Part shown: positions 1 to 42,200 of the stretch, in pieces
Layout: every line of letters begins with the position of its first letter
Numbering within the stretch: the stretch's first letter is position 1
Assembly: GCA_964019335.1 (NCBI GenBank)
Contig: OZ025665.1
Location: 1 to 64,000, forward strand
Direction: 5' to 3'
Length of the DNA stretch: 64,000 nt
From: Diplonema japonicum
Lineage: Eukaryota > Protista > Euglenozoa: Diplonemea
Translations under genes and position numbers: made by a program
The notes under the pieces: model-generated
What the model saw: the letters and a program-made list of their open reading frames with translations, nothing else
Told to the model about the DNA's origin: nothing
Databases searched by the model: none

Positions 1-3000
1 CCCTGTCAGGTAGAACGCCGCCTCAGCTACCTCCTCCTCCATTCCTGTAGCCGCAGCTTCCCGTTCCATCGCCTCCTGATCCTCCCGCTCCCTCCTCTCC
101 TCCTGGGAGTGCTGCTCCGCTTCCGAGTCCAGTTCCATCTTCTCCACCAGAACCTTCCCCTTCCTGATGGCCGCCCTCGCCACGCCCTTGACCACGGCCG
201 CCGACACTGCGGCCTTCATGTCGTTGAAGACCTCCACCCTGTGTCGTCGCGTCCTCTTCGCTGCTTCAGATGCCACCTCCTTCAAGAACTCCCTGGCCTG
301 CCCTGCCAGACCCCCAAACGTTTCCACCGCAAAAGGGCGGAACTGCTTGTGAGCCTCCTTGCACGCTTCCATGTGCTTCTTGTTCTTCGCCTCCTGGGCC
401 TTGTTCGCAGCGTAGCCAGCAGTTTTTGAGGCCTGTTCCAGGTTGCCCACCGTCCGAGGGTGCACCACCGTCACATCCACCGCCAGCCCGTGGCCGTTTC
501 CTTGTATCCCGCTCGGGAGGAGGATGTCCGCTGGCTTTGCCGATGAGCCAGCCACGATGTGCTTCTCCTCCCTGACCACATCTATCGCCCCCTCCCTGCA
601 CTGGTCATACAGGACGTCCCTCACCCCGTTGTGGCGGTGTTGCGTGGTCCCTCCGTTCTTGCAGCACTGCGCGTGGTCTCCTCGGGCGTCCATTTCCTCC
701 CCGCAGTTCAAGCACTGTGTGCCCTCTTGGTATAGAGGCGCCCCGAGCCACCACCTCGTCGCCACCTTGAACTCCTCATCGTTCATCAGGTTGCCATGGG
801 TGAGGGGGGCCACCAGCCATGCCCCGGCTCCTTGCATCGCCGTCCCGCGGATCCTGGCCTTGTCTTCCTTCCCTGCCTCCCCCAGGAGGCCTTGCCATGC
901 GCTGTCCTCGAGAATGAGGGACAGGAGCCTCTGCTGAGCTGCCTTCGGGTAGTCCTTCAAGAGCCCCACGCTCATCAGGGCCGCCTCGCCCGGGACCTTC
1001 TCGTTCAGCCACCTGCAGTGCTCCTCCCAGTCTGCCGCGGAATCCCAGTCGTACATGGGGTCGATCTCCTGGGAGATGTTCCGCGTCGCCACCAGGGATG
1101 CGATGTTCGCCACTCTCAGGTGCTCCTGGCAGCTCCTCAGGCCCAGCCCTCCCCTCCTTACTGCTAGGCTTGCTTGTTTCCACTGGTGCCCCTCCAGCTC
1201 CCCTCCCGCCAGGCACCCCATCGTCGATCTGACCAACTCGTCGAACCTCTGCATGGCGTCCCCAACATGGGTCTCAGGGATGGTCCGCATGAAGTGCACC
1301 ATCTTGCCGAAAGACTGGCAGCTGCGAAGGAGGGCGTACCCCGACTGTGCCCGCATCTTCGACTGCATCCGGAAGGTCTCCGCCAGCCTGTCGATCTTCC
1401 TGTGGAGGAAGGCGGTCGTGTACTCCGGTGTGCCGATCGGTGCCCCTAGCAGCTCGAAGTTGCCGTCGCGGGACACTTTGTCCTTTCTGAAGCCCTTGAA
1501 GCCCCACTCGGCTGGGTCGTTGGGCTTCTCCCCGCGTACCCAGATGAGTTCGCATTTCGCCGGCTTCACCGACAGGTGAACATCTGCGCTCAACTCCGTC
1601 AGGATGTCCACCGCCTTCCTCACTTGCTCCACCTCGCCCGCGAAGACCCCATCGTCCAGGTAAAACTGACAGATGTCCAAGTCCGTCTGTTCCTTGACCT
1701 TTTCAATGATGGGTTGGAGGGCGAGGGAGAAGAAGAGGGGTCCCAGAGGATCCCCTTGCTGCACACCCTCCTTCGACTGCAGGACCTTCCCATCCCCGTA
1801 CAGCAGGTTCGTGGGATTCTTGTAACAAAGTTGCGCCCATTTTTCCGCCCCAGCAGCCTTCGCCCTCACTTGTCGCAAGATCTCGTGCCTGCTCATAGAA
1901 TTGAAGGCGTTCGCGTAGTCCACCTTCACGATTACCCTGTTTCCCTCTCCCTGTTCCCTCTCCCTCTTCACGTATTGCCTAAAGGTGTGCACAGCCGCTT
2001 CCATGCCCGCCGGCACCGCCACCCCCAGTTGACCACCTTTCCTCAAGTACTCCGTGGCAACTGCAGGGGCTATTTTCACGACCAGGGCTTTCGCCACTAA
2101 CCTCCTCAGGCATTCGCCCACCGCGATTGGGCGAACTCCCTTGTCCGGCTTCTTCAGCGGAGTAAGTGAACCGCCTGCTAGGAACGGGACGACGTCACTC
2201 GGGACCTCCCCCTGGACCATCACATTGCACGTCCTTGTCAGCGACTCTGTGATCCCTTTCGCCTTCGCCCTGCCCTCCACAGCTGCCCGGAGATGTTCCA
2301 CGCTGAGGCCCGAAGGGCCCGCCGACTTCCCCTTGCCCAGGTCCTGCAGGGTGCGGACACACTCCAGGGGTGTAAGCACTTCCGCCTCTTCCGGCTCCCC
2401 CAGGTCCAGCAGGCTCGGGTCATGCATTGGTCTCGGGTGTAGCGCCTCGAGTTTCCTCTCTGTGTCCTCGTCGTCGTCCGCTAGCCCTACCGCCGTCAAG
2501 GCCGCATTCGCCTGGGAGAATCTCATCTCCCTGGTCAGCGTCTCCGCTCTGCTCAGGCGTGTCTCCTCCGTCGGCTCCTTCGGAGGTACATACTTAGGCT
2601 TCGGCAGGTCCTCCCACAGCTCCTTGTGTTCTCCCCTCAGCCACTGTGCGAGCTTGTTCTTGTTGTTCTTCTCGTTGGTCTTCCTCCTATCCTTCCCACC
2701 CTTGCGCTTCGAGAGGCACACCTTGGGGAGCATCATGAGCATGACCCAGGACTCGTAGGTCTTCTCTTCCACTACCCTGTCCATGCATTGTTTGAGTGCC
2801 ACACTCCAGTCCCTCCTCAGGCTGTCTGGGACCCACTTCAGCACCCTTACTTTTGCCGACATCACTTCATCCAGGGAGGGGAGCTCCGACCTGTGCGGCG
2901 CCGCGCATCTCTCGGTGGGGGCGAACTCTCCCATCTCCTTCAGGCACTCCTCGTGCGCACCCTTCTCCGTGCTCGCCAGTCTCCCACAGACACACGGGCG

Positions 3001-5611
3001 CAGGCCTATGCCCCGCAGATCCGCCTGCGATACCTCCGACTCCATCAGGTGATCGTTCAGGTGCTCCGTCAGGGTCGCGAACGACATGAAGGCCCTCCCC
3101 TTCATCCTTAGCGACCTCTCGCACCCATACACGGGGCAGTACAGGTCTGTCTTTGACTTCAACGGGGCGGCTTCCTCCGCTCTTCCGACCCCCGGGTCCA
3201 CTCTTTTCTCTACTGGATCCGATACCTTCATGAAGTCTTCGCTAGGTGCCGCTGCGGGTTGCACCCCTGGCGCCTGCGACCTCACGCTGTAGGCCCACCC
3301 TCTCATCCTTTCCATCTGTTGTGTGTCTGCCTCCACCGGGTCATAGTGCTCGCCGTTGAAGCCCATGACGATGTGCGACCCTGCCGTCCCCAGGTCCACA
3401 CCCTCTGCCGCTATCTCCAGCACCGACCACTCGCCTCCCACCACCACTAGGATAGGCCTCTGCCAAAGATCCGAGGCCGCCACCAGACATACGTGGTCTC
3501 CCCACGACTTGTCCTTGCTCATCTCCCTGACGTATTCCTCCAGGCCCTGGCTGCCCTCCTCCATGAAAGGCGAGTACTTCCCAGCCTCGGCCCGCATGTG
3601 CTCCATCACTTCTGCCCTCACCTCTGCGTGCTTCCGTTCATCTCGGTGGAGGAAGTGGGCGATGGCTCGGAACATACAGTTCCCGTCTCCCGCCACTGGG
3701 ACCAGTCTCGCGCCCGTGAACGATATGAGTGCATCCATTGTTGCTCTTCCGTCACCCTGGAGGCTTGGCTTGGCCTGCTGGGGCTTCTTCTTCTTCGACT
3801 TGGTTTTCCCGGCACCCGCCTGGTTCGAGCATTCCGGACACTTTTTGCTGCTAGCCGCGCATATTCCCGGGCAGCTCTCGCATATTCCAAAACCCATCTC
3901 CACTACCTGCTCCGCCGTGATGCCGTCTTGCTTCCGCCAGTGACCAGCGACATGGTACCGGAGTCCCCCCTTGGTCTTCGCCTTGAAGTCGCAGCTTTTG
4001 CACTCGAATGCTGCCCCTCCTCTCAAGGCACCTCCTGGGAGGGCGACACTGCGTCTCGAGCATGGGGGGGGCTCGGCGGTTGCTTTCAGCCCCTGATGGA
4101 AGGGGAGGGGAAGGGACTGGGGAAACGGAGGAGGAGGGGGTAGTGGAGACGAGGGAAGGAAGTGGGGGTTAGAAGAGCTCCTGCCCCCAACCTTGAATGA
4201 AGGTCTGCCAGGCCTTCTACCCACCCACCTTCTCCTCGTTCTCCTCGTGGGACGCGACCCTTCCCCTTGTGCACTTGAGTGGCCACCAAGGTCTGGGGCA
4301 GGGGCGAGGGTGACAAGGCAGCATAGAAGGTGGAACAGAATGGGGAGGGCAACCCTCCACCCACTACTCTCCACTTCCCTTTCCGCCTGCCCTTCCTCCA
4401 GCCTCCTGCGCCTCGTTCTTGCTTCCCTCCTGCCTGCGTTCTTCGCTTCCCTTCTCGCTCTCTTCCTCTCCTGCCTCCCTGCCTCTTCCCTGTCGGCCTC
4501 TGCTTCCCTGGCCGCCTGCCTCCTCCGCCTCCTCGCCTCCAGAGCAGCCTCCGTCCTCCTCCTCTTCCTCTCCTTCTTCTTCGGGGCTGCCTCCTTCTTC
4601 CTCCCAGTTCGCACACCCCTGCGCCTTTCCCTGGGTGGGTTCCACCGGGTCGCCCTGCCAGCCGTTTCCACCGTGTCTCCTCCCACTATTCCTTGGAGTG
4701 GGGGCAGGGCGTGCGTGGACGGTGGGCGCGGTCCCTCTTGGGGTCTCCTCAAAGTCCTGAGGTAGACCTTATTCCCCATATGCACGTCTACATAGGGGGG
4801 AAGGGGTGCCTTCGCTGGGGCAGGTGCGGGTTGGGTGTGTGGCCTAGGGGCAGGGTCCCGGTGGCTCTCAGGGGGGATGGGTATGTCTCCTACAGGGGGT
4901 GGGGGTGGAGTTATTAGTGGAGGGGGGCTGGTGGGGGGCTGCACATGCTTGTCCTTTTCGGGGGAGGAGGGTGGGTTTGGTAGTGGGAGGGGGTTGGTGG
5001 GGGGCTGTACAGGGGTAGGGAGGGGGCTGGTCTCACGCGGGTCCTCCGGATGGCAGGGGGTTGGGTCGGGGACACATCTGAGGGTGACGGAGACCCTCCG
5101 GCCCTCCGTCGCTCCTGCCGGGATGGTGTGTGTCCACCCGTGCCTCGCTTCCCCCTCCAGCACCGCCCACGACCTGGGGGGGACGTGGAAGCGTGCTTCC
5201 TTCCCACCCTTTCGGAACACCATTTTCGTCGGTGTTCCGAACGAGAGGATCAGCACGATCCCCCCCAGCACCCGGTCGTCGGTGTGCTCCGCGATCCCCA
5301 CCCCAGGCTGGTAGCTATTAACCAGCACCTGGTTGGGGACCCCCTCCAGCCCCGCCTCCTCCCACGCCCTCTTCACCCAGGGGACAACCCCCTCGGGGAT
5401 GCCCCTGGTGGGCCTCACCACCCCCCTCTTCCTCCACTCCCAACCCCACTGCTGCACCCTTCGACCGGTGCCACAGTGGGCGAGCTCCTCTCCCTCTTGG
5501 GTGAGGAGCTCCACCGGGAGCTGGAGGGGGAACGGCCCCGTCCGCATTCCCCCCGGCCTTTCCCCCTTCTCGAGCCGCCAGGGGGCGCCCTTCCTCTCCC
5601 CGTTCTTGCCC

Positions 5612-5613
<2 letters not shown>
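1..5613 (-). CDS. Retrotransposon polyprotein >1871 aa: AlkB - basic/TM region - ZnF - OTU - ZnF - RT - RLE - C-terminal extension (3'-partial)
   Basis: ATG at 5613 follows a pyrimidine tract. Hand translation puts AlkB (5077-5470), C2H2 finger (CKSC..HVAGH, ~3940-4005), OTU (GDGNCMF ~3670-3690; FNGEHY ~3345-3362), YLDD (~1650) and RLE (~170-720) in one frame. The ORF track lists no stop-terminated minus ORF in that frame between 1 and 5613. Confidence 0.88.
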
Positions 5614-5645
<32 letters not shown>

Positions 5646-5837
5646 AAGGAAAAGAGAGAAAAGAGAAGAAAGAAAAGAAAGGAAAGAGGATTTCTAGTGG
5701 GTTTCTATGTAAAAACAAACAAAAACAAAAAACAAAAACAAAAAAAAAGAGAAAGGAAAATACAGGGATTTCTAGGTGACTTTTTTTTTTTTTTTTTACA
5801 GATGAACACAGACAACAAAAGAAAGAAAGGAAAGAAA

Positions 5838-6215
5838 GGGAAGATAAACAAGTCTACTTTTTTTTTTTTTTTTTTTTTTTTCTAAGGGAGTTTGCCGACT
5901 TTGACTTGACCGAAGTTGTCAGGGGTCAACACAGTTGTGTCGGGCTTTTCGTGGCCGGAGTAGGGGCCGGGGGTGAGGCTGCTCAGCTGGCGTCTGATGT
6001 GAGACGCTGGTGGAGCTGAGCGCCGGGACTTGGGGGCGGGAGGAGGGAGGGAAACACCAGACAGCGCGCACAGCAACAGCACAGCACCGACAACCCACAC
6101 AGCAACACCACACACGCAGCGTTCGACTGCCTGCCGCCTATTTTTTTCTTTTAGGGGGCGGGTTGCTGTAGGTCAGGGGGAGGGTCCCTTCCCTTCCCTT
6201 CCCAATAAACTTTTT
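5838..6215 (-). repeat. Conserved 5' non-coding module of the retrotransposon family, copy 1
   Basis: Close match to 16104-16497; 6111-6179 is identical between copies. Several stems and a (GGGAA)3GGG run. Confidence 0.9.
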
Positions 6216-6289: not shown

Positions 6290-6738
6290 TTTTTTTTTTT
6301 TTTTTTTTTTCTTCAAAAGACACACAAGGCACGATAAATCTTAAGAGAAAATAAAAATATTCCAAAACAGACAATCAAGTTCCAACCTGGGAGGAAGGCA
6401 TGGGTTTCTCTTTTTCTTTATGGGAGGGAGAGGGGAAGAAGAAGAAGCAACTCCAAATGATAAAAATTCAAAAATAAAAATCTCAAAAAAGGCTTAAAAG
6501 AAGAAGAGGCAAATTCAAAAACATACTAGGGAGGAATGAGTGGGGCAGGGGGTAAAATTTAGGAGGGGGAAAGAGGGAGAATCAAAAAAGGGGAAAGGGG
6601 CAGAGTGACCAATGTCCACTCTCCTCCTGCGAGTCGTCTTGGATCCATTTTTTTTTTTTTTTTTGTTTTATAGTGTGTGTTGGGGGGGAGGGGATCCTTT
6701 CAATAAAGTACAGAAACTGTAGCTTTAGAATCGTTGGT
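6290..6738 (-). pseudogene. Processed retrocopy of a short trans-spliced, polyadenylated RNA (SL exon ... A21)
   Basis: SL exon at 6738-6701 is joined to non-GT sequence, followed by a short 29-aa ORF (MDPRRLAGGEW...) and a poly(A) at 6310-6290. Confidence 0.6.
6701..6738 (-). ncRNA. Spliced-leader exon copy, diplonemid type (not a complete SL RNA gene)
   Basis: Reads ACCAACGATTCTAAAGCTACAGTTTCTGTACTTTATTG, with the euglenozoan CAGTTTCTGTACTTTATTG 3' end. It is followed by AAAGG rather than the GT donor. Confidence 0.92.
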
Positions 6739-7444
6739 GGACGGGAAGCCCCTCGAGATTGATTCGCCGGAGGTCAGTGGGAACAGGGGTCTGGCGAGGA
6801 AGAGGGTGCCCTCGAATGAGGCTCAGTCCGCCCAGCGGACCCCAAAAGTGAAGAAGGGTCGCGGCCAGCTGGACGTAAGAGAGTCGAGCCTAGCCGCTGG
6901 CATGCGCGTGCTGTTCGGAGCGGTTCCGCCCCCTTCCCTGACCCCCTTGGCCGTGGGTAGCAGGCCGCCGCAGGAGGAAGGCGAAACGGTGCAATCTCCC
7001 ATTCCGGGGGCGAGCGGTGCAGGGCTCTACTCTCCAGAGGCGAGGTTCCCGGAGGCGCCTGTGGTGTCCATGGCCGCGGACCTGTGCGAGTCGGACGGGA
7101 TGGAGGCACATTCGGCCTCCTCCGGTGTGGACAGAGAGCCTTCGCCCGCTCGTCCGTCGCAGTCTCCCGTGCTGGGGGCTGAAGGCGGGGGGCGCCTCTC
7201 TCCGGAGGTCAGTACCCCAGAAACCTCCAACCCCGATGTCCGGGTAGAGGGCGGGGAAAAGGTCGCCAGAAAAAGGGTACCTTCCCACGAGACCCAGTCG
7301 GCCCAACGCGCCGCTAAGGTCGGGAAGGGCCCTGTCCAACGAGATGTGAGGGGGCCCCAGGGTGGTCGATCCACCCCCTGGGCTCGCAAGGGCCCAGGGC
7401 TTGAGCAGCCAACATTAAGGGTTCCTGAGGGAAGCCCACTTTAG
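6739..7444 (+). pseudogene. 5'-truncated GC-rich coding fragment with an internal duplication, probably from a mobile element
   Basis: The open frame starts at the SL junction with no true ATG and contains ARKRVPS.E.QSAQR..KV.KG..Q.DVR twice. Confidence 0.4.
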
Positions 7445-7488: not shown

Positions 7489-7625
7489 CCATTACAACAA
7501 ATCGACAATGGGGAAAAAAAAAAAAAAGAAAGATAGCAAAAGAAAAAAAAAGGGGACCGGGAGTTTTCCCCCCTGAAGTTCCTTTGTTAAAACATGTTTG
7601 CTGTTGGGTTTCCGTTTCTTTTCTT

Positions 7626-7821
7626 TTTGGTTTAACTAGGAGTTTTCCTTCTACAGCTTGTTTGCTGATGGTTTTGAGTTGATTCTCTTTTATTTTTATT
7701 TTTATCTTTGGTTTAACTACAAGTTTTCCTACAGCTTGTTTGCTGATGGCTTTAAGTTGACTCTTTTTTATTTTTATTTTTGGTTTAACTAGAAGTTTTC
7801 CTTCTACAGCTTGTTCGCTGA
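7626..7821. repeat. Tandem repeat with 72-81 bp period, ~2.6 copies
   Basis: tttggtttaacta..agttttc..ctacagcttgtt.gctga at 7626, 7707 and 7779. Confidence 0.9.
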
Positions 7822-8758
7822 CGGGTGGGTTTATCGGGCGGGCTTCCATAGCTGGTGATCTATGGAAGCCTTCCCAGATTTTTTCTTTTTTTTTTTTTTT
7901 TTTTTTTCAGGCCGGGCTGGGGAAGGACGACAAGACCACCAACGGAGGAGAAACCGCTGCAGAAAGGGGAAAGGTGCAGGAAGACGAAGAGGACGAGAGG
8001 GCGTCTCACAAAGACTCCCTTTAATTCATATATCTTTTATTTTCCTTTTTATTTTTCTTTTCTTTATTTTCTTTCTCCCAACCCAACCCCCGAAAAAAAA
8101 GAAAAGAAAAGAAAAGATTCATTCCTCCCTAGTTTATTATATTTTGCATCAGGTTCGCCGAGAAAATAAAAGGAAAAACAAAGAAAGAGAACGGCAGCCA
8201 AATTTTAAATTTTTATTTTATCATCAAAGGAGGTTTGAAAAAGAGAAAAATTAAAGAGAAGAAAGAGACCTTTTTCTCCTCTATCGATAAGTGGTTCACG
8301 AACTCGAATCTTTATCACCACTTTTTAGTGCATGCCAGATTTTTTTTTTTTCTCCCGCCTTGTTAAAGAAGTTTTAATTTACTAATAAAAAAAAAAAGTG
8401 AAAAGAGGAGTAGAAGACGATCCGGTGGGGGGCATGGGAACCATAAACCGTGTCTTCCATCGCGATCGGCAAGGCGGGGGCTTTTCCGTCCCATGGGTGA
8501 AAAGAGGCGGATAAAACCACTATTCCGGACCCCCCCCCAACACTGAGCATGCACTTTTTCCCCCCAAAAAAAAAAAAAAAAAAAAAAAAAGGAAAAAAAA
8601 AAAAAAATCTAAGTGGTTCTATCTAGCCTGGCCGTTGTAGCACCTGTTCCCTATTCTTTTATTTTTCCCTTTTTTTTTTCTCAGAAAAAAAAAAAAAAAA
8701 AAGTTTCAGATCTTCCTATGGCGGGGGGGGGAGACCAGCCCCCCACACCCCCGCTGGC

Positions 8759-11700
8759 CTATCTGGCCAGCGAGCCTTTGGACCTCTTCTTGTGGGGTAT
8801 GGGCCCCACCCGTGCCCTCCCCGACTCGAGCTGCAGCCAAGCCACCGCACTGTTCACCGGGGCCCAGTTCTCCTTGTTGCGCACCTTGACCGTGTCCCGC
8901 ACCAGGTCGTCGCTCCCCAGCTCTTCCATCAACCTGTGCTCCGCCAAGAACTTGAACTGGGGCCCGGTCATCCCCTTGAGCTCACCCCTGCATATGTTGG
9001 CTTCGACCACGGTGCCATCCGCCCCCGTACCCTTCAGATAGATGTAGCCACCCTCCACACAATCCGAGTCAGTACTGGCCGATCGGGCCCGGGCCCGCTT
9101 CTTGTCCTTCTTGCTCCACTTCAGCTCTTCCAGGGTGGGGAGGTCCGTGGCAACCACCTCAGGCCGCCTCTCCCTGTCTTCCTCCTTCTTCCGGGCCAAC
9201 AGCCCAAGGTACCTCTCACGAGGAGGTACCTCTCAGGAGACGTCCTCGAACAACCCCGGGACCGTCACCACCGCTGACTGCAGGTCGACCTCTTCAACAC
9301 CCATCTTCCGCAGATGGTCCTGGACAGTGCGCCTCGTCTCCTTCTCGCAGGGCCCCCTCCCCTCGTAGACGTCGAGGGTGACCTTCCTTCCATCCCTCAC
9401 CCACGCCTTCACTTTGATCAGGTCCTTGACCTTTCCCACTGGGGCCCTTATCCTTGCGTCGCACCTCTCCAAGAACTCACGTAGTGTCACCTTGGTAGCG
9501 CCGGCTCCCGCCGCAATGCCCACTACCCCTTCCTTCCCCGGTGTCGGGTGGTGTCTGCACCCCCGGGTCTGCAACTTGACCACCCTCCATGCCGTTTCCA
9601 GAGTCCCCTTGAGCACGCCACCCTTGAAACGAACAGGTTGCACCGCCGAACACCCACACGCGTACGTGATCTGGAAATCCTGGACCGTCCTCGGGAACTC
9701 GAACTCGCGGTATGTTTCCGACTTCTGCACCTCACAACCCACAATGCGGCTGCGGCGCTCTCCGTCCGACCCACCTTCCAAGCTTGCGAAGTACTGCTTT
9801 ACCATCATGTATCCAAGTCCAGCGATACCAATCTGGCCAGCCATAGCCACCTCCAGTGGAACACCCAGCGACTCGGCCTTCGCAAGAAGCATCTCCTCAG
9901 TCCTCTCCCTTCCAGGGTCCGTTCCTTCTTCAAGGATGATCTCCACCCGGCCCTCGAACTGGATGATGAACTTGAGCAGTCGGTCCCCCGGCCTCGCCCT
10001 CAGTGGCACCATCGCTCTCGGAATTGGGATGCCCATCACCACATCAATCGGGTCAAGCTGAACGAAGTCTCCCCCTACTTCCACCTGCTGTTCCCTTTCC
10101 GGTGCCCCGACTCCCATCAGCTGATCTCCCTCCGGCGTCTGGATCCCACCCCTAGGTGTGTCAGGCCCCGACTGGCTGCCTCCGCTCGGTGCGTTCCCGC
10201 CCTCTTTGGTCCCTTCGGGGGCGTCATCCGCCTGCGGCTTCAGAGTCCTCCCACCGCCCTGTCTCTTCGCAGCTTGTTCCCTACAGAATTCGCTCACGGT
10301 CATCTTCCTCGTAGCAGTTGTCGCACTCTGGTCCCCCTTGTTCGAGTCCCTCTGGGCCTCCGTATCCCCCTTAGGACACTCGTCCAAGGTCTGGTTCACC
10401 GCAGCGTCAGTCGCCCCTTGTCTCTTCCCATCTTCCTGGGCCTTCGGGTCAAGCTCCCCTCCCTGCCCAGCCCTCTCGCTGGATCCTGTTCCGGCCATCT
10501 CCGTGTCTTCTCCTCCCGGCGAGGCTGCTTCGAGTCCTGCTCCCGCTTTCCCTTGTGTTCCACCCTCCACCGGTTCCGCCTTTCGCTGCTGCTGCATTCG
10601 GGCGTCCAGGTCCTTCTTCGTCTGCTCCAGAAGGGCATCCAGCTGGTGGGCCACCGTGATTGGGGGTCCGCCTCCCTGTCCCTTCACTTCCCGGACGACT
10701 CCTCAGCTTCGGTGGTTTTTTCATTGCCGAAGGAGTCCTCTGTGAGGTCAGTGTTGGATTCAGTGTTGGGTTCGTTGTTCGCTTCCTCGTTGTCCTTTTT
10801 TTCCTCTTCGCCGTCCGGTACCGGGGGCCCTGGATCCAACTGTACAGGCCCTTTGACTAACAGCGCCCCTGCTTCGATCTCATCATGGCCGTTGACACCT
10901 CTTGGACCACGCGCCTGTGTATCGAGACTCTGTCCCCGTGAGCCCGCGCAGCTATGCTCCTGGACAGTTTCTTCGTGAGGTAGACTGCTGCCTCCCCGAA
11001 CCCCCCAAAGGTCTCCATCGCGAAAGGTACAAAGGCCACGCGTGTCTTGGCGAGCTCCGCCTCATACTTCTGGCGCTTGTAGTGTTCCGCCTTCGCCGCT
11101 GCGTACCCCGCAGTCTTCGCCGCCTGGTTGACACAAGACTCGTTCCTCGGGTGCACGATGACCACGTCCATAGCCATTGGGCGGGAACCCCCCACCCCAC
11201 CTGGGAAGAACACGTCCGCCGGGCGCTGGGACGACCCCGGGATCAGCCCCGTCTTCTCCATCGTTGCGCTCACCCCGGCCCACTGACAGTGTCTGTGGAT
11301 GGTCTCCTTCACCCGGTCGTGCCTCGCAATCCTGGCGTTGCCGCATCCCTGGGCATGGTCACCCCATACGTCCATCCCCTCAGTCTTGCACCTCGGGTCG
11401 TGGCAGCTCTCACCCTGCTTGTAGACCGGAGCCCCCAACCACCACTTGATCAGAGCCCCAAACTCGTTGTCCGACAGCTGGTTGTAGAAGTCAGGCGTCG
11501 CCGTCAACCACGCCCCCGCATAGTGCATTGACTCCGACATCAACCTCGCTCTCGAGCGTGCATCTGCTTTCGCCAAGAGGTCCTCCAGCGCCTTCTCATC
11601 AAGCACCCTAGAGAGCCACCTCTGGCTGCAGATGTGGGGGGCCTTGGCCACCATGTCGGGTGTAATCTGCATGCCGCCCTTCGTCCTGTTGAACCACTCG

Positions 11701-14700
11701 AGCCAGCTCCCCCATACACCCCCTTCCAGCCCATGTTCGTATTTGGGATCCAGCTCCTTGCACAGCTTCATCGTCGACGCCCTCGAAGCCATGTTGGCCG
11801 CGCGCAGGTGCTCCTGGCAGCTCCTCATCCCAAGCCCACCGACTTTTACGGACAGTTTCGCCTGCTGCCATTCTTTCGACCCGTTCTCGAACTGCATGCC
11901 GCACACCTTCGACATCGTCTTCCGCACCATCTCGTCGAACCTGTGCATGACCCCTCCCACATGCGAGTCTGGGACCACTCTCATGTAAAACACCAGTTTG
12001 CTGTATGAGCTGCAATACCGGAGAAGTGTGTACCCTGTCTGCCTCCCCACCTTGGTCAGCATGTCGAAGTTCTCTTCCAGCGCGTCCAAGCGTTTGTTCA
12101 GAAAGGCTTGCGTGTACTCCGGCGATCCTATCGGCGCCCCCAGGAGCATGAAGTTCCTCTCTTTGTGGAAATTCTCTTCTGTCAGGCCATCGAAGCCTGT
12201 GTCCTCCACTGTCTGGGGGAGGTCGCCACTAACCCATATGAGCTCGCACTTCTGGGGTTTCACTTTCAGCCCTATCATTCCGCTCAGCTCACACAAGATG
12301 TTGTACGCCTTTCTCACTTCATCCACATTCCCCACAAGGACGCCATCGTCCAGGTAGAACTGGAGGATGTCCAGGCTGCAGTCTTCACTTATCTTGTTCA
12401 CCAGGGGTTGGATGGCCAGAGAGAACAGCAGCGGTCCCATCGGGTCCCCCTGTTGCACCCCTTCCTGGGACTTAATCACCTTTCCGTTGTAGTATAATTG
12501 GGAGGGCACCCTGTAGCACCAATCGGCCCACGCATACAGCCCCGACGCTTGCTCATAGGCCTGTGAGCACAGCTGCCTCCGACAAACACTGTTGAAGGCG
12601 TTGGCGTAGTCGATCTTGAGGATCACCTTGTTTTCCTGCTTGTTGCCCCGTTCCCTGTCCACATACTGCCTGATGGTGTGTATAGCCGCCTCCATTCCAG
12701 CAGGGACCGATACCCCCACCTGGCCGCCTTTCTTCAGGTACGAAGAGGCCACTTCCGGAGCGATCTTCTTCACAAGGGATTTCCCCACCAGCCGACGCAG
12801 CACATCCCCAACGGCTATGGGCCGCACGTCCCTGTCGTTCTTCTTGAGGGCCACAAGGTTCGCCCCTGCCATCAGCGGAGCCACCTCCCTAGGGGCCGTG
12901 CCTCTAGCTAATGCGTTGACTGCCCTCGTCACCGACATCAAACAGCCTTGAGACTCAAAAGCTCCGTCCACCGCGTCCTTGATGTGCTGGGCTCTCAGAC
13001 CAGTCGGTCCCGCAGCAGTCCCCCTCGGGAAGTCCCTGATTGCGTCCAGCACTTCTTCTGGCAAGACTTCTACCGCTTCCTTCGTCTTCGCCGGGTTGTC
13101 CCATTGGGGGTGTAGTGGCTCTGGATGTTTGCTCTGCAGCGCTCTCCAGCAATCCTCATTGTCTTCCGCCAGCCCCTGGGCTACAAGCGCCGCGTTTCCT
13201 GCCGAGAACCTCCCTTTGCTGCACAGTTCCGTGGCCCTGGCGACCTTAGAGACCTCGTCGTTCTTAGGTTCCCCCTTCTCACCTGATTCCAGCTTATTCC
13301 AGAGGGCCATGTAATTTCCCTTCTCCCACTCCTCCATCTGGCCTGGACACTCAGCTCCGTCTCCTTGTCCCGCTTCTTCCCTCCCCTCTTCTTCCACAGG
13401 CAGGCTTTGGGGAGCATCGCCACCAGCAGCCAAGCCTCCTCTGTGTTGTCCTTCACCGCTCGGCCCAGAGTGTGCTTAAGGGTAAGCCCCCACAGTCTTT
13501 GAAGGCTCGTCGGGATCGACCCCATGGTCGTGACGTTCATGGCGGCTATGGTTTCCAGGCTGGGTAACTCGGTCCTCGTCGGGGCCGGCGGGGGGGTCGT
13601 GTATTCCCCTTCCCTTCGCACCGCCTTTTTGCACTCGTCGTGGCACCCCTGACCCTTCCACACACAGCCCCTGCACACCAGGCACCTCTCGAGGTCCAGT
13701 CTCCTCAGAACGCTCTCCGGGATCTCATCACTCTCCAGGTGCCCATCCAGGTGACACTTCCATACCCTTGTCGAGTTGAACGGGGTCGTGCTTTTGCACT
13801 TCGACCTAGCGCAGTTCGCCACCGGACAGTACAGGAATTGCTGGTTCCTTGCCCCCATCTGGTCCAACACCCCTGCCTTCCCATATCCAGGGATCGCACG
13901 GTCTATTATGTCCCACTCCCCGATGTCCTCACCCGGGGCCTCGGAGGGTTGCTTACCTGCCTTTTGTAGAGCTACCGATTGGGACTCATCAAGGAGCATC
14001 ATCATCGACTCCTCCTCTCCGACTGCATACTCGTAGTGGTTGCCGTTGTACGCCAGCACCACCACCTTCTCGTGGTCGGAGTTGTACTCCCCTATCATCA
14101 GGACTGGGTTGTTCCCCCCAGCAACCACGAGTATCGTGCGGCCAAACGCTTGTCCTGCGGCTGCCAGGCACAAGTGGTCTCCCCACGTCGCTGCCGTGCC
14201 CATCCCTTCCAAGTACCGGTCCCAACCCTCACTGCAAAACGGGGCATAGTGCTCCTCCCGGTGTTTCATCCATTCTACAACCTCGCTCCTGATGTGGGTG
14301 TGGTCGCCGTAGGCTTCCCCGAGCGAACCGGCCAGGGCGTGGAACATGCAGTTCCCGTCCTTCTCCGTCGATCTCCTCGTCAGCTTGAAGCTCTTCATGA
14401 TCTCGTCCACTGACTTGCCGGCCCTGGGTTGTTTGTCGGGGTTCCACAGATTCCGCTGCCTGTGTAGTGCACAGTGCGTCTGGTTCGACGAGCACGCCGC
14501 AGCACACGTTCCACAGAGGTTCACCTTCATGCTCCTCGCCTGCTCTTGTTTCACAAAATGATGGTGGACCGCATTGAGGTGTTTAACTAGACAGCTTGCC
14601 ACACTGGTGCGGAAAGAGCAGTCTTCCATCCGGCATTGATGTTTGTCTGATCCTTCTTTTTCCCCCTCCTTCTGCGCCTCCATGTGCTCATCATCCAAAT

Positions 14701-16072
14701 CCATGGGGGGAGGGTCACCACCTCCTTGCAACGCGTCCCCTGCCAGCGTCAAGTCCGCAAAGGGGTCCAGGTGTTCGGCCTGAAAGAGCTTATCCTCCGT
14801 CTCAGCTCGTTCCTTCGCCGCTTGCTTGGCGTCCTCCTTCTTTTTTCTGCGTCTTGAGCTTCTAGGCGGGCCCAAGTACACCGGCAGGTAGTGACCTCTC
14901 GATCCGCGTCTTGTCTTCTTCAGCTTTACCGGTCCGAATCTCTGGGTCGGGCCAGCACCAGCTTTCCCCACCATCACTTCCGACATGGCCCAGAGCGACA
15001 TCAGCCCCCCTATCCAAACTGAAGTGCTTCCCACCAGGGTGCCTCCTACCGCTAGCCAAGCGAGCTCCCCGGCGGACCATTCATCCCCTCGGGGCCCCAC
15101 CTGTACCCTTGACCTGCGGGTGGTCCTCCTGTCGCTCCCCGGCCTCTTCCACAACACTGCAGCATGCAGGAAGGAGGGGGCCATCCCGATGCCCGCCCCC
15201 AGCACCTGCCTCACCCCTGGGATCAGCAAGAGGGAGAACAGGGCGACCCAGGCCCACACCCCCAGGTGCTCCCATCTCATCCCTTCCTTGCTGTGTCCCG
15301 TCCGTCTGCGGTGCCTCCTTGCACCGGTTGCAGCCCCAGGTGCCGGGATTCTGGGTGCCAGGGGTTGGGCTCCAGGCGTTCCCACCTCGGTCAGCTTCAG
15401 CCCCATTGCAGGGTCATCTGGCTTCTGTTCCAGGGCGGCCTCGTGTTCCTCTCTGCGGGCCCTCCTCCTCCCTTCTTTCCTCGCACGACGGTGCCTTTTC
15501 TTCTCCTGTCTGGCAGCCTCCCTCGCCCCCTCCCTCGCCTTGGTCCTCTTCTCCCGACGCCTCTGAAGGGCCGTTTCGCTCCTGTGCCTCCTCTTGTTCT
15601 TCTTCCTCTTGGGCGCTGGCTTAGGTTCCCTGCCACCCATGGCAATCCAGGGGGCTCTTTTCTGTCTTCTCACAAGGGTGTGCAGTGGTGCTCTCACGTC
15701 GCTCGCAGCCTCCGCCCCAACCACACCTTGGCAGGCGGTGGGGGCGGGTGCTGGGTCCCCCTGGTTGTTTGAAAAGAAAAAAGGTTCCTTCTTGTTTGTT
15801 TTTTTTTTTTCTTTCCCTTCCACCCTCAAAAAAAGCCCCCGGCCCTTGGGGACCAGGGTGTACACCTCCGTAGAGGGTCCAGAAAAAATGGGGGGCAGAG
15901 AGGGAGGAGCACTACCTTCTCTCGGGCGTGCTGTCTCTCCCTCTGCCTTTTTTTCCTCCGAAGAGGGTCTGTTTTTCACCTCCGTGGAGGGTCCCTCTGG
16001 GGAGGGCTCTAAAAATGAAAAAGGGGGGGACAAATGGGGGGGAGGAACACTACCCTCTCTCGGGGGTGCCAC
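8759..16072 (-). pseudogene. Disrupted polyprotein of element 2
   Basis: ORFs 13181-16072, 10857-13433, 9233-10687 and 8759-9199 join through three 1-nt frameshifts (~13338, ~10865, ~10690) and an in-frame TGA at 9233-9235. The joined protein is collinear with element 1. Confidence 0.82.
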
Positions 16073-16103
16073 CTCTTCCCCTCTCTCTCTATAGGAAAGA
16101 AAA

Positions 16104-16497
16104 GGAAGATAAACAAGTCTACTTTTTTTTTTCTTTCTAAAGGGGGTTTGCCGACTTTGACTTGACCGAAGTTGTCAGGGGTCAACGCAGTTGTGTCGGG
16201 CTTTTCGCGGCCTGGAGTAGGGGGCCGGGGGTGAGGCTGCCCAGCTGGCGTCTGATGTGAGACGCTGGTGGAGCTGAGCGCCGGGACATGGGGGTGGGAG
16301 GAAGGAGAAAAACACCGGACAGCGCGCACAGCAGCAGCAGCACAGCACCGACAACCCACACAGCAACACCACACACGCAGCGTTCGACTGCCTGCCGCCT
16401 ATTTTTTTCTTTTAGGGGGCGGGTTGCTGTAGGTCAGGGGGGGGGGGGGGGGGGGGGTTCCTTCCCTTCCCTTCCCTTCCCTTTCCAATTTTAAAAA
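16104..16497 (-). repeat. Conserved 5' non-coding module, copy 2
   Basis: Matches 5838-6215. Confidence 0.9.
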
Positions 16498-36227: not shown

Positions 36228-39200
36228 TCAATTCGAATGGAACGCTTCGTTGGGTTGTCCGTTGGGAGTGTTGGGAAAGACAGTGGACAGCGGGTTAGAG
36301 GGCTGGCCAGATTCTTCTTGATGTAGCGTTGGCTCACCTTCGATTTCAATTTGCTGCGGCGGCTCCTTATTAGACGCAGAACCTGATCTAGCAATCCATG
36401 CCGCGGTGAAGCCCAGCACCACAAGAACAGCTAACGAGGCAATCACGATAGCGGCAATGACCATCGGGCTGAGTGCCCCGCTGTCGTCGCTGCTGGTTTG
36501 CTCAACAGTATCCTTGCAGACTCCAGAAGACACAACACAAGGTGCAACACAATCGGCAAGATTCCTCCCAACACACAACACAGGCACCTCTCTGGGGGTG
36601 GCGGCGGTAGTGTTCCCAGGAACGTACCGTAAGGGCACTTCGGCTGTGCCCTCGTTCACAGAACGTATTTGAAGACTCTTCCTTGTCTGCTCTTTGACGG
36701 GGTCCGTGACAATACCCAACAGTGCATTGAGTCCTTGCAGATCTGCATCGTCCATCAGTGTCACCTGCACGTCGACACCACTAGGTACTTGCGTCTTTCC
36801 CATGACCTTCACAGTCCCCATTCCTTTGTCAATCGACGCTGCAAGCTGGTTCTCCCACGCAGTCCCCACCACCGCCCCTTCCTCTACCCCTACCACAACA
36901 GTCGGGTTTGGCGAGTCTCTGCTGTCCACCACCATCACAAGCAGCAGCACATCCTGCGACACCATCCCCTCCGAGTCCCTCGCTGCCACGGTAAACAGCC
37001 CCTCGCCGCTCGTCCCTTGCCTCGGGAACACCTCCATCACTCCGTCACTTCCGACCCTCGGTGCCGACAGCAAGAACTGCCCTACAGCTTGTGCCATCCT
37101 GACTGCGGGCTCTTTCACGTCAAACATGACGCTCTGAGTTGTTTCCTCCGGCCCTGGCGATATCTCCATAGCCCACTGTCGCTGCCACACAACATTGCTG
37201 TAGAGGGCTATGCCTCTTACAACCGGCGTGAAGGAAGGGGGATCGTTCACAGGTGTGATAGCTATCCGAAACATATGCTGAGCACTCAGGAAGGGACAGG
37301 AGTCACACACTTTATCCGTCGTAGTGATGGTACACTCACTGTCACCGTACTTATTAGGCTGTGTACGGTAGCTCAGGTCACCTGTCGTCCCTGTGGTAAC
37401 CAATGTGGGGGGAACAGCAAACAACACCTCAGAATTAGCACACACAATGTTCACTGAGAGGGTCTGGGAGGCTTCATTGTTGCCTGGACTCAGATTCGTC
37501 ACCCAATCATCAACTACCACAGCCCCTTGGTCTTCCATGCTCACGATAACACTGTCGCTGATGGTGAACTGCGGCTTGTCGTTGATGGGTAACACGTTCA
37601 CCGTGAAGCTTGCAGAGGCCGTTTCGTTGTTCTTGACTGCTGTCACCATAAAAACAGCTGCGCCATTCCTGTCTGCTGCGGGAGTAAAAGAGACATCGGC
37701 CTTGCCGTTCTGAATAGAAGCCACAACTGGCGCCCCTGTAAGTTGCGGGTTGGAACTCAACACGCTCACTATGGCACCATCAGGAATGTCGTATAAATGC
37801 CCCACTAGCGTCGTGAAACCATTGTCTTCGTTAATAGTGACGTCGCCCAGAGTGCTGAGCGACAGTGCTTGTGTCGTAGGAGTCACAGTAACTGTGATAA
37901 GCGTGGTACCCGACGTGTCGTACCCACCATTGGTGGTGCCACCATCATCCTTTGCCCGCAACTGAATCTGTGTTGTGCCTGACTTCCCAGATGCTGGCTT
38001 TATATGCAACATGCCATCAGTGGTTACAGCCACCGTACCCTCAAAGAGGCTGGCCTCGGGTACCGTAACGACGTAACCTACCGACTGAGTTCCTTCGTTG
38101 GCTGGTCCGGAGGTAGCGTCTCGTGCGACTTGAAGTACATTCACACCACTGTCTTGCAACACAGTGACAGCATTAGTCACAATGGTCATCCCTGGGCGAT
38201 CGTTGACCCCAAGCACCTCCAAGGCAAGCACGACAGGCGCTGTACTGTCAATGCCATCGGATGCTATTATCTCTAAACTGTAGGAGCCGTATTGGTCTGG
38301 TGTGAGTGTGAACTCAAGATGGCCTTCAGTTGTGATAACAGGTTGGGATACAAAAGATGGGTTTCCAACCAGTACACCATTCTGTTTGGTTTTAACAGTA
38401 AAGGTGACAGGCTGCTCTTCATACTCTCCGGCAGTCACTTGCACCACTGTGTTCTGAAGAACATGCCGTCCCGTGTCTTCGAGAACCCGCACTTCAGTTC
38501 GCGACAACTGGAAGGTCGGCGGGTCGTTCGAAGGTGTGACATCAAGAATCAAAACCCTCGTGAAGGAGTCTTGCCCACCGTAGTCGGTCCCACCGTTGTC
38601 CTTCAGCACTATGTTCACTGAAGCGACACCAAAAGCATTGGGCTTCACAGCGAACGTGAGGTCCCCTGTCGCCATGTCAACTTGTGGCAGTTCCAGAAAC
38701 ATATCGGGTTTGTCAGTACTTGTAGTGAGAGAGAGAAGCTGCTGCATGTGTTCATCCGAAGGTCCTGTGATAAAGGTGTGCGCCCAGTCACGAACTCTCT
38801 GCGGAGGAGAATCCTCAGGCAAGGTGAGGCGCTCGGTGAGAACAGTGAAGTGTGGCCTGTCGTTCACAGGAGTGATATTGATTGTGATTGGTCTGCAAGT
38901 CCTGCTGGAACCCCCACCATTGTCCTCAGCGCACACCTCCACCGCAACACTTCCACTACTATTCGCTGCGCTCTGATACACCAGCGCACCTCCAGTTACA
39001 ATAGGCTGAGCCGAAAAGAGCTTCTTGTCACTTTCCTTGACAATCACGCTAACACCAACTACTTGGCTGCTCTCCAGCGGTGGGCCTGCGCTCGTTGTTG
39101 CCCACCCATCCACTCGAACTAGTCCCGCGTCCTCGAGAGACGAAACGGTACTTGTAGCAAGCACCAATACAGGAGGGTCATTCACTTCAGTTACTTGTAT

Positions 39201-42200
39201 CGTGAACACGCATGTCTGGGACACACCCCCAGCAGCATCCTCTAGCTGCAACGTAAGCGGAATGCTACCCGAGAAGTCTGCCGCAACGCAGTAAGAGAGA
39301 GAAGCAGTAGATGGTGATCTCCGAGGAGTTACAGGGATCGCCAGCGTTGGCTGGTGGAGAAAGGCTGCTTGGTTGTAGTTCGAGAAAACAGCAGTGAGAC
39401 CCTCAGACTGATCTTCAGTTGCGTCCCCCGCTGTGACTGCTGTGGCCCAATCGATGTGAGTCTGCCTATCAGAGCCCCCCGTAAAGCACCCATCTTCATC
39501 CACTACCACGTCACCACCGCATAGCAGGTTGGGGTTTCTATTCCCGTGTACTACATTCAGCACTATCTGCCGAGGCTTCGAAGTATCGTCACCCTGCCTC
39601 GCGGTTCCGCCTGTGTCGACTGCTGTGATTGACAGCGTTGTGCTACCTGTCTTGCCTGGTATGGGTGTAAGTTTCAAGTCCCCCGTGAGTGGGTCGATCG
39701 TCGCTCTTCTCGAAGATGATTGAGCTGCGTGCCCCTCCAGGTACTCGGGGTCGGCAGGTGTTACAATATATGATATGGTTTGTGTCCCTTCTTCGTATCT
39801 TCCCACGTGTGACGTGCTGATGAGGCCGGGTATGGTCTGCTCCCCTTTGTTGTCGACGACAGTCACCGACGGCAACGACAAGGTGAAAGTAGGCTCATCA
39901 TTCTTGGGGAGAACAGTAAGAGTGAAAGTGTCAGAGCCACAGCAGTCCATCGGTGCCCCGTTGTTTAGCGTGCAAGTCACAGTAGTACTCCCATATCTGT
40001 CGTCAGCCGGAGTCAGCGTAAGCGTACCCGTTATAGCATCGATCTGCACTCCACTGATCGTCACGAGGCTCGCATTCGCTGCAACGCAAGAAAACCCTGG
40101 AAGTCCCACTCCCCCAGTACCGTAGTCGATCCCCACTGCCCACTGGATCACAGTATGCTTCCCAGAGTCTTCTACAATAGTAACATCACCTCCTTTAATG
40201 AACGAAGGCTGACGCCCTGCCTCACCAACACGCAACAGAATGTCATTGCTGAACGTCGACACACCACTGCAGCCAACACCATTCGTGCCGTCATCCACCA
40301 CTGTTATAGTGATGGGGATATACGCACCCCCTGTATCCTCACCAGGCTTTAGCTCAAAGGACATAACGCCAGTGGCAAGATCCACCACAGGGTTGGACAC
40401 AAACAAGTTGGAGAACCTCGGATCAGGCGTGACAGTGATACTGGTGATATGCTGTGACGCTTCGCCGGTACCAGGAGAGGGACTTGTGATGGCAGGAAGC
40501 GGTGACGTCCACTTGCAAGCTGAAGCAGGGTCGGAGAGCTGACAGCTCGTTGCAGAAAATCTGTCGTTCAGCACTGTGAAAGATGGCTGGTCGTTGGAAG
40601 GCTTGACAGTTATGGTTGTGGGGGGTGTTACGGTGGTTACGCCCGCCTTGTCTGTCACAGCGAAAGTCACTTCAGACGTCCCGTAGGCGTCAGGGGCAGG
40701 CGTGAAGGAGAGTGCACCTGTGTCGGAGAGAGAAGGCTGCACGGCGAACAGTGTAGGGTTAGTGGCAGTTGCTACGACAGTCAGCTGGTCACCTGCGTCT
40801 ATGTCGCTGAGAGCACCCCAAGCAGGCAGGGTCACAGGCCCTACATCCTCGCACACCGCGACATTGTCACCAGGGGATACCTGTGGCGGGTCGTTCGTGG
40901 GGTTCACTTTAATCTTGAACCGCCGCACAGTAGAATCATCACCACCGCAGTTGTGCTCGCTGCTTGTCCCTCCGTTGTCTAGCACTGTTACCTCCACGAA
41001 AGCCTCACCATTGGCATTGAGCTCCGGTGTGAAGCACAGCTCTGCGTCAGTAGTAGACGTCTTTGTTAATTTCGGCTGCTCGGAGAAAAGGGTCTGAGGG
41101 GTTGTGACCAACGTGATAGACGTGCTTTGCGAAGGTTCGTTGAGCCCTGCAGTAATGCCAGTCGCAAAGGATGGGATGCAAGTCCTGCCGGAGTCTTCAT
41201 TCACCTCCACCAGAGGGAGAGACTTGAAGTATGTGGTAACTGTAGTTGAAGCAGCGCAGCTTGACTGCACACATGCGGTGCGCAACCTGCAACCAGCTGC
41301 GTCCATCGTGAAGCATTCACAAGTAGGCGTTGTGTCACATGTTTGCTGGCAAACGTTAAGCACCGTTGAGACAACGCCGTTCCCTAACAGCGGCACACCT
41401 CCAGAGCCTGTGGTACATTCCACGCCTTGTGTTACGTACTCGTTGGCCTGTCCACCTAGTACTACTGTAGGGGGGTCATTCACGTCAACTACTGTGATCA
41501 CTAGCTTGTCCGTGCGGCTGTTTGGCAGGGGGCCGCCGTCGTTAAGTGTCACTGCCACCTCTGTAGTCCCACTGACACCTGGTGCTGGTGTGAAAGTTAG
41601 CTTGCCAGTTGCGTCCACTTGAGGCTGCCCACCGGCAGTGAACAACGACGTGTCATAAGCACCAAGCGTAAATGTGAAGCCCTGGTTCTCCGGGGGGAGG
41701 AGCTCATTGTCTGCACACAGTGAAGGGCTGAGACCACCAATGCACAGGTCAAGGGCCCACTGGCCATCGTATGGGGCGTCTTCGCACACTACCACGTCGC
41801 CTGCAGGCCTATAGCTAGGGGGGTCATTGATGCTATTTATAGTGATGCAGATCTGAGTTGGTGGGTTAGCTGTATCGACACCTCCATCATTAGTGCCACC
41901 GTCATCTTTGAGCACAACAGAGCATGTCACGCAAGAGGGATTCTTGGTGCTCGTGAACATGTGTGGGGCAGGAGTGAAGGAAAGGTCCCCAGTGAGAGGG
42001 TCGATGGTAGGCTGCGTTGAGAACAACGACTTGTCGGCACAGTCAATAGTGAAAGTGAGAATCTGGTCTTTCTCGCACTCGCCTGGCCCTGGCGTGATAT
42101 CAGTGGCCCACCCTGCGTAGCGGAAGGGGCCGCTGTCCTCATCGACGGTAAGGGGGTCACCTTGCAGAGGGCCTGGGAGGAAGGTAGGTGGGTCGTTTAC

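Follow-up and report, generated by a model that had tools for sequence, protein, structure and literature searches.

A single-frame polyprotein and its sister element

The window analysed here comprises positions 1 to 64,000 of contig OZ025665.1 (assembly GCA_964019335.1; 64,000 nucleotides (nt) in all) of the diplonemid Diplonema japonicum. Its first 5.6 kb carry element 1, in which a single open reading frame (ORF) encodes an AlkB domain, an OTU cysteine protease, a reverse transcriptase (RT) and a restriction-like endonuclease (RLE). A sister family without AlkB, element 2, lies on the same (minus) strand at 8700..16476. The ORF of element 1 (1..5613, read 5613→1) runs for 1871 codons without a stop and leaves the window before it is closed, so that its length of at least 1871 amino acids (aa) is a lower bound. 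A contig of run X2, one of four runs compared below, extends 605 nt beyond window position 1. Reading along the minus strand from position 6401, the first ATG encountered is the one at 5613, and the AG dinucleotides that follow a pyrimidine tract ahead of it (5694..5706) are candidate trans-splice acceptors.

Three Pfam profiles match the translated frame above their curated cut-offs: 2OG-FeII_Oxy_2 (aa 66-179, E 2.4e-11), OTU (aa 642-725, E 3e-16) and RVT_1 (aa 1154-1358, E 6.5e-19). The first of these marks the AlkB (2-oxoglutarate (2OG)-Fe(II) oxygenase) domain (aa 1-185; 5059..5613), in which the iron triad (H110-x-D112, H162) and the RxxxxxR 2OG motif (R173, R179) are intact. A proline-rich linker (aa 186-305; 4699..5058) and a Lys/Arg-rich tract read from the sequence (aa ~325-410; 4384..4641) follow, the latter homologous to a tract in element 2 and inferred to act as an RNA-binding or nuclear signal. 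Next comes a 19-residue hydrophobic helix with a mean hydropathy of 2.2 (aa 421-439; 4297..4353), predicted to be a membrane or signal segment. An LRGG motif (aa 530-533; 4015..4026) directly precedes the first zinc-finger (ZnF) cluster, ZnF1, which is composed of a C2H2-like finger and a Cys cluster (aa 536-597; 3823..4008), aligns with element 2 and gives weak Pfam matches (C2H2, aa 536-555, E 0.14-0.21). The OTU domain (aa ~630-762; 3328..3726) carries D643 and C646 in an Asp-x-x-Cys loop and H756 as the catalytic His. Behind it lie a second zinc-finger cluster (aa 826-895; 2929..3138), read from the sequence and common to related elements, and the RT (1414..2361), which has YLDD at aa 1318 and the R2 protein as best solved match (E 5.6e-9). 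A CCHC knuckle and a PD-(D/E)xK endonuclease complete the enzymatic part (169..714; CCHC 1634-1650, RH 1660, KPAD 1693, D1713, K-x-K-K-H 1743-47); these correspond to the CCHC, RH, KPD and K..KY motifs of R2's endonuclease as published (PMC4838377; here and below, literature is cited from excerpts of the papers). The remaining stretch (1..168) is the start of an acidic C-terminal extension that leaves the window, and relatives have long extensions as well. An earlier note, made from the sequence alone, had described one frame of more than 1871 codons with AlkB, OTU and RT domains, an OTU Cys/His pair, a YLDD RT, an RLE, a basic tract, a hydrophobic helix and two zinc-finger clusters, continuing past the RLE; the stop-free frame, the profile matches and the located motifs bear out each of these parts.

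In element 1, the RT is followed by a CCHC knuckle and a PD-(D/E)xK endonuclease, as in RLE-type retrotransposons that lack long terminal repeats (non-LTR), and zinc fingers, RT and RLE share a single ORF, which is the layout, with one or two zinc-finger motifs, by which the CRE clade is defined (PMC12278014). Domains and motifs agree with the assignment proposed earlier, and element 1 is with high confidence an RLE-type (CRE/SLACS-like) non-LTR retrotransposon that holds AlkB and OTU in one frame.

In element 2 the parts are arranged alike: basic tract, hydrophobic segment, LQGG motif (14731-14720), ZnF, OTU, ZnF, RT, RLE and a C-terminal extension. Its frame is broken by frameshifts, one of them near 13340-13400 between the second ZnF and the RT. 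The two elements are 44% identical over RT-RLE and 30% over ZnF-OTU-ZnF, and the open frame of element 2 aligns with element 1 from aa 219 of the proline-rich linker onward (blastp E 5e-18, a value inflated because the low-complexity filter was off). The C-terminal extension of element 2 spans about 700 codons in broken frames (10860-8760), contains a globular-looking part and has no match in Pfam, NCBIfam or Atlas. Around element 2, only 8-nt matches are found as possible target-site duplication; the 3' end of element 1 lies outside the window.

Both elements are preceded by a common leader of about 380 nt on the minus strand (5828..6203 and 16093-16476), which is 89% identical with gaps included. 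Its cores are 93-98% identical, ahead of families that share only 44% identity in protein. The leader contains an internal poly(A) and folds better than shuffled sequences (z -4.0 and -3.4); Rfam and ARAGORN returned nothing for it, and inspection by eye gave no convincing hepatitis delta virus (HDV) or hammerhead ribozyme core. It may be a 5' leader that was swapped, a target common to both elements or a separate small element.

When the OTU-RT-RLE part was searched against 1.84 billion representatives, the top match was a D. papillatum 'SLACS 132 kDa protein' with a ZnF-OTU-ZnF-RT layout, and the nearest named proteins come from D. papillatum and D. ambulator. Two RT trees were built as quick searches, from which 14 and 6 rows that were too short or lacked an anchor motif were excluded. 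Elements 1 and 2 are sisters in both (Shimodaira-Hasegawa-like approximate likelihood ratio test (SH-aLRT) 99-100). In the tree of 37 rows, which excludes the C-terminal-OTU protein P0103, the pair is sister to the SLACS-annotated protein of D. papillatum (SH-aLRT 90), and all eight OTU-bearing rows fall in one 10-row clade (SH-aLRT 99). The earlier note had proposed a phylogeny with CRE, SLACS, Cnl1 and MoTeR: the grouping with a SLACS-annotated protein was obtained, and the labelled rows include none of these references and no trypanosomatid one. The RT alignment found no match in viral contigs.

An OTU clade with a ubiquitin-tail-like motif

Among solved structures, the OTU domain of element 1 is closest to OTUD3 (E 1.7e-9), followed by OTUD5 and OTUD1, and viral OTUs match more weakly. 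A profile of the domain matches 6 of the best 150 representatives at E < 0.01, one of which had been used to build it. Seven families, including both window elements and P0002, carry an OTU ahead of the RT. Because all OTU-bearing rows fall in one RT clade, the OTU is, judging from the tree, ancestral to a clade as a whole, among whose members are D. papillatum proteins in GenBank. The OTU-ZnF alignment found no match in metagenome contigs, and neither an OTU nor an AlkB was detected by profile or phmmer in 80 RT-related metagenome loci (0/80), most of which are too short upstream.

Some members of the OTU clade have a second OTU or a ubiquitin C-terminal hydrolase (UCH) domain after the endonuclease. 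An OTU occupies this position in P0200, P0206, P0207, P0214, P0215, P0003 and P0103, the first five of which also have one ahead of the RT. UCH domains are found in the C-terminal extensions of the SLACS-annotated D. papillatum proteins P0194 and P0198, and P0198 has both OTU and UCH. Other related elements carry different accessory domains: a Dam-like methylase together with four 2A-like motifs (P0005), MLLE (P0047, P0055), Prim-Pol (P0057, P0082), Ulp1 (P0084, P0129) and an RNase H-like domain (P0108). Upstream of the RT match in L055 and L071, Ulp1-like protease motifs can be recognized by eye, and the hydrophobic N-terminus of L055 ends in an LWGG motif.

LRGG is the C-terminus of ubiquitin. 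A motif of the form [LM]xGG occurs 32-126 aa before the OTU Cys in 7/7 families with an OTU ahead of the RT, compared with 5/95 same-size control windows from relatives without OTU (Fisher p 4e-8), and ahead of none of the C-terminal OTUs (0/4). It was first seen in three families (element 1, element 2 and P0002), and the four families fetched afterwards all had one. Element 1 has LRGG and element 2 LQGG; the four later families have ELAGG, ALRGG, AMQGG and MRGG. The distance from motif to OTU Cys is 32-38 aa in families without ZnF1 and 113-126 aa in those with ZnF1. A basic tract lies upstream of the motif in all six families with sequence there, and a hydrophobic segment scoring at least 1.8 is present in 5/6 called proteins of the motif families. 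Motifs resembling 2A peptides, which are known from APE-type elements (PMC3708506), occur in the N-terminal region of 6 of the 57 representatives whose N-terminus is long, and none of the six belongs to an OTU family.

This pattern is likely to represent a ubiquitin-tail-like processing site of the polyprotein. Cleavage at LRGG is predicted with fair confidence, and cutting by the element's own OTU is slightly favoured over cutting by a host enzyme. The evidence has weaknesses that count against this interpretation. The seven motif families are kin, and the Fisher p overstates their independence for that reason; the pattern was widened from L to [LM] after the data had been seen; shuffling within each family gives p values of only 0.03-0.35, so that no family is strong alone; and a 10-mer match between elements 1 and 2 fails multiple-testing control (22/300). 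Self-processing had been suggested in the earlier note: the conserved motif, which that note did not contain, adds support to it, and the cleavage itself stands as a prediction.

The alternative that fares best, though still a tentative one, is that a host deubiquitinase cuts the motif, or that no cleavage occurs, and that the OTU of the element acts on host ubiquitin chains in chromatin, repair or degradation signals. The ubiquitin C-terminus is a substrate of many host enzymes, and in several relatives the endonuclease is followed by a further OTU or by a UCH domain; those OTUs are not preceded by the motif. Such roles in trans have been proposed for OTU and Ulp1 in DNA transposons (PMC2836005). 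However, the spacing between motif and N-terminal OTU is narrow, relatives without OTU seldom have the motif, and its P3 position holds R, Q, A or S, whereas a strict copy of ubiquitin would not vary there. Cleavage by the element's own OTU and a role on host ubiquitin are not mutually exclusive.

The AlkB domain, its copies and its surroundings

The best solved matches of the AlkB domain are ALKBH8 (PDB 3thp, E 7.5e-9) and then ALKBH6. Look-alikes in Atlas are compact clusters of 183-201 aa dominated by DNA viruses or bacteria, which serve as leads only. A single-sequence fold model was poor (predicted local distance difference test (pLDDT) 41), and a fold search with it was uninformative. 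The earlier note had called AlkB and OTU a virus-like accessory toolkit. A viral origin is not supported, as the best solved matches of both are cellular (ALKBH8/ALKBH6 and OTUD3/OTUD5/OTUD1) and viral OTUs are weaker; flexivirus sequences were not compared directly. 'Virus-like' is best understood as an analogy only.

Several observations favour AlkB as a part of the mobile unit. It is flanked by two parts common to element 2, the leader and the Pro/basic region, and therefore lies inside element 1. Its G+C content at third codon positions (GC3) is 0.86, compared to 0.79 for the OTU-RLE part and 0.57-0.59 for four host genes. Contigs of four runs (X2, X5, X6 and X10) were compared over window positions 1-5600. 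In X2, which stems from a separate study, the listed contigs cover most of 1-5359 without indels. A 481-nt X2 contig spans the junction between AlkB and the linker with five differences from the window, and from the junction onward to the basic tract the X2 contigs overlap by 30 nt, again without indels. Contig depth in X2 decreases from about 200-250 at the 3' end to 86 over the RT and about 16-27 over AlkB, a gradient that fits 5' truncation, with the reservation that contig depth is not copy number. X10 has no cover over AlkB and X6 is patchy there; these gaps carry no weight. X5 contains further versions, recognizable by 6-nt in-frame indels at 4946 and 5361.

The substitution counts rest on 40 listed variants, with 21 further variants outside the count. 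None of the 40 creates a stop, and 18/40 are synonymous (33% expected). Among C>T/G>A differences, 12/21 lie at CpG compared to a background of 20% (p 2e-4), with the window holding the CpG, and 2/13 of the changes in the reverse direction do so. This pattern is consistent with a young copy in the window, its AlkB included, and with older methylated copies in decay. Loose ends at 5176-5595 in X2, X5 and X6 reveal a second, diverged AlkB-coding sequence with an apparently similar N-terminus.

AlkB is quite probably a true part of the mobile family; the following observations speak against this. It was found in none of the best 150 representatives (0/150), the cluster members (0/38), the other related proteins (0/35) or the RT-related metagenome loci (0/80), and a search with the AlkB region among proteins of 1029-3275 aa gave no match. 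Among the listed contigs, none spans AlkB to RT. The low AlkB depth in X2 also fits a single locus, and the variants could be alleles. The listed AlkB variants are two synonymous and five non-synonymous ones (n = 7), with no selection visible. Finally, some copies are frameshifted between AlkB and RT: X10 has 1 nt inserted at 4300, and part of X5 lacks 2 nt at 3949. Pfam scans of 20, 29 and 37 relatives likewise found no member of the 2OG family, and no AlkB was found in viral contigs and phage records. The earlier note had named, among the findings that would count against its proposal, a stop or frameshift between AlkB and RT and other copies that never carry AlkB in frame. The listed X2 contigs show no indel and the listed substitutions no stop, while X10 and part of X5 are frameshifted; the X2 junction contig, which could be an allele, carries AlkB, and the sister family, element 2, does not.

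The elements 1 and 2 on their own do not distinguish a gain in the former from a loss in the latter. Since AlkB is absent from all other relatives, gain is favoured, and on present comparisons the scaffold of OTU plus motif is old, whereas AlkB was captured later and is specific to the lineage of the element 1 family. The single AlkB-plus-OTU toolkit of the earlier note accordingly falls apart into an OTU that is clade-wide and an AlkB found only in the element 1 family.

An unlikely reading of the same data is a one-off chimera, in which an AlkB gene or retrocopy fell in frame into the 5' part of a single copy of an otherwise ordinary OTU-type element, without spreading afterwards. The absence of AlkB from element 2 and all relatives searched, the depth minimum over AlkB in X2 and the lack of visible selection are as this reading would have it, and the second, diverged AlkB sequence in X2, X5 and X6 could be the host donor. 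However, the GC3 of AlkB resembles that of the element rather than that of host genes, the 1871-codon frame is clean and the catalytic set intact, the X2 version of AlkB differs by transitions of which 5/6 lie at CpG, always with the CpG in the window, and the in-frame indels at 4946 and 5361 point to further versions in X5.

The chances are about even that the substrate of AlkB is the element's own RNA or cDNA. It is rather improbable that AlkB counters silencing instead, with host chromatin DNA or host RNA as its target. The CpG-biased decay of copies does suggest that the host methylates the family at CpG, and D. papillatum encodes DNA methyltransferases (PMC10161547). Yet the predicted cleavage would part AlkB from the integration enzyme. 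Removal of 5-methylcytosine (5mC) is, moreover, known from TET enzymes. The domain itself matches the ALKBH8/ALKBH6 types, and DNA repair activity in vitro is described for stand-alone enzymes of the ALKBH8-like kind from bacteria, protozoa and mimivirus (PMC4051686). Both this role and the one on host ubiquitin can be compatible with parts of the reading preferred below. That the family edits methylation and ubiquitin marks, as the earlier note inferred, stays a hypothesis. An assembly artefact or sequencing error that joined AlkB to the RT frame is highly improbable: none of the listed contigs spans the whole stretch, but the junction of AlkB and linker is crossed in X2, where overlapping contigs continue as far as the basic tract and show no indels, and the leader and linker on either side of AlkB are both homologous to element 2.

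Upstream of element 1, a copy of a spliced-leader (SL) exon lies on the ORF strand at 6701..6739, matching the row 'Euglenozoa 14' at 36/39 nt (PMC3795323). It is located 1.1 kb upstream of the ATG, is followed by AAAGG and not by a GT donor, and is the only copy found in the window, with none at element 2. The 'Euglenozoa 14' row is presumably the Diplonema leader, and this match and the nearest named proteins point to a diplonemid host. The copy may stem from a trans-spliced RNA that was reverse-transcribed, as its 5' end, or be the remnant of an SL target. In the same region, a GC-rich open frame of 245 codons with an internal duplication and no Pfam match occupies 6707-7444 of the plus strand, beside three short tandem-like repeats (7619-7824). 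Host genes in the window encode RAD54-like, PUF, TFIIS and ubiquitin-conjugating proteins and mark it as eukaryotic, and a host frame of 2576 codons (36228-43958, minus strand) contains bacterial Ig/cadherin-like repeats and a C-terminal hydrophobic segment.

Proposed mechanism and relation to known elements

Taken together, we moderately favour a reading in which a single-frame AlkB-OTU-RT-RLE polyprotein is cleaved behind LRGG (G533), with its own OTU as the most likely enzyme, to yield a replication enzyme and an accessory part that bears AlkB. The RNA of element 1 would be trans-spliced and translated from the ATG at 5613 into one polyprotein. A cut after G533 would free aa 1-533, comprising AlkB, the proline-rich linker, the basic tract and the hydrophobic helix, from ZnF-OTU-ZnF-RT-RLE, and would fill the role likely played by 2A-like peptides in related elements without OTU. 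The RLE would then nick DNA and the RT copy the element RNA at the nick, as R2 does. The basic tract may keep AlkB on the element's own RNA, where it may strip methyl adducts or marks that would block the RT or flag the RNA. A more far-reaching version is possible but doubtful: a CRE-like clade whose own OTU cuts a ubiquitin-tail mimic and releases a membrane-anchored, RNA-binding accessory protein, to which the element 1 family has added an active AlkB that counters host RNA methylation.

The described CRE elements (SLACS, CZAR, CRE1 and CRE2) have a ZnF-RT-RLE layout and insert in SL RNA genes (PMC12278014). Element 1 shares with them the single ORF, zinc fingers before the RT, a C-terminal RLE, the euglenozoan host and an SL exon upstream, while it adds AlkB, the basic and hydrophobic module, [LM]xGG, OTU and a C-terminal extension. 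Insertion in an SL RNA gene is not evident, as the SL copy lacks a GT donor and element 2 lacks an SL copy. Closer are the 'Retrotransposable element SLACS 132 kDa protein' entries of D. papillatum (KAJ9436461.1 and KAJ9439003.1), which are 38% identical over OTU-RT and likewise have a hydrophobic and basic N-terminus, an ELAGG motif and ZnF-OTU-ZnF-RT-RLE, but differ by lacking AlkB and having a C-terminal UCH domain. The excerpt of the D. papillatum genome paper lists SLACS RTs without mention of OTU or AlkB (PMC10161547).

AlkB in a retrotransposon has a published precedent in Ty3/Gypsy elements of the orchid Phalaenopsis (PMC9289625), whose AlkB showed N6-methyladenosine (m6A) RNA demethylase activity in vitro. 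Those are LTR elements with AlkB in a separate ORF resembling plant m6A demethylases, whereas in the non-LTR element 1 AlkB is in frame and closest to ALKBH8/6 among solved structures. NeSL and Utopia-1_TSP (PMC4640811) are, similarly, RLE non-LTR elements with a protease for ubiquitin-like modifiers ahead of the RT, but belong to another clade, carry an N-terminal Ulp1 rather than OTU and no AlkB, and have no cleavage motif described in the cited excerpt. OTUs are also found in the transposon proteins of Ginger1 and Helitron/Helentron (PMC2836005, PMC6431247); these are DNA transposons, for which the excerpts describe no processing site. DNA methyltransferases, in turn, occur in LINEs (PMC5890265), and replicases of flexiviruses and closteroviruses carry AlkB (PMC9289625). 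Like element 1, these replicases are polyproteins with AlkB and a deubiquitinase-type protease beside a polymerase. OTU-like proteases and LxGG cleavage do occur in viral polyproteins. The polymerase is, however, an RNA-dependent RNA polymerase instead of RT-RLE, and among solved structures the AlkB and OTU of element 1 match cellular proteins best, with no AlkB or RT match in viral contigs. Convergence is the simpler reading of this likeness.

The earlier note knew of no description of this layout, which agrees with our search: no literature description of an OTU, AlkB or LxGG site in a CRE-like element was found, although the parts have precedents (subscription papers, Repbase and Dfam fell outside its scope, and a Repbase entry may exist). 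What is new is strongest for the OTU clade and the cleavage-like motif conserved in it; AlkB within the frame is striking but less secure.

Transposons have repeatedly been found to carry proteases for ubiquitin and SUMO, such as the Ulp1 of NeSL and Utopia and the OTU of Ginger and Helitrons, with a role that the cited excerpts propose only loosely. In the OTU families, a conserved candidate substrate sits within the same protein as the protease, and the role of the OTU is therefore addressable with a single construct. Diplonemids are an abundant marine group, with D. papillatum as a model species. If the proposed processing is true, single-ORF RLE elements make an ORF1-like accessory protein, for which one clade uses a protease and others use 2A-like peptides. 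With the in-frame AlkB, demethylase capture would extend beyond LTR elements to non-LTR elements of the RLE type, and it would point to nucleic-acid methylation as a pressure on diplonemid transposons.

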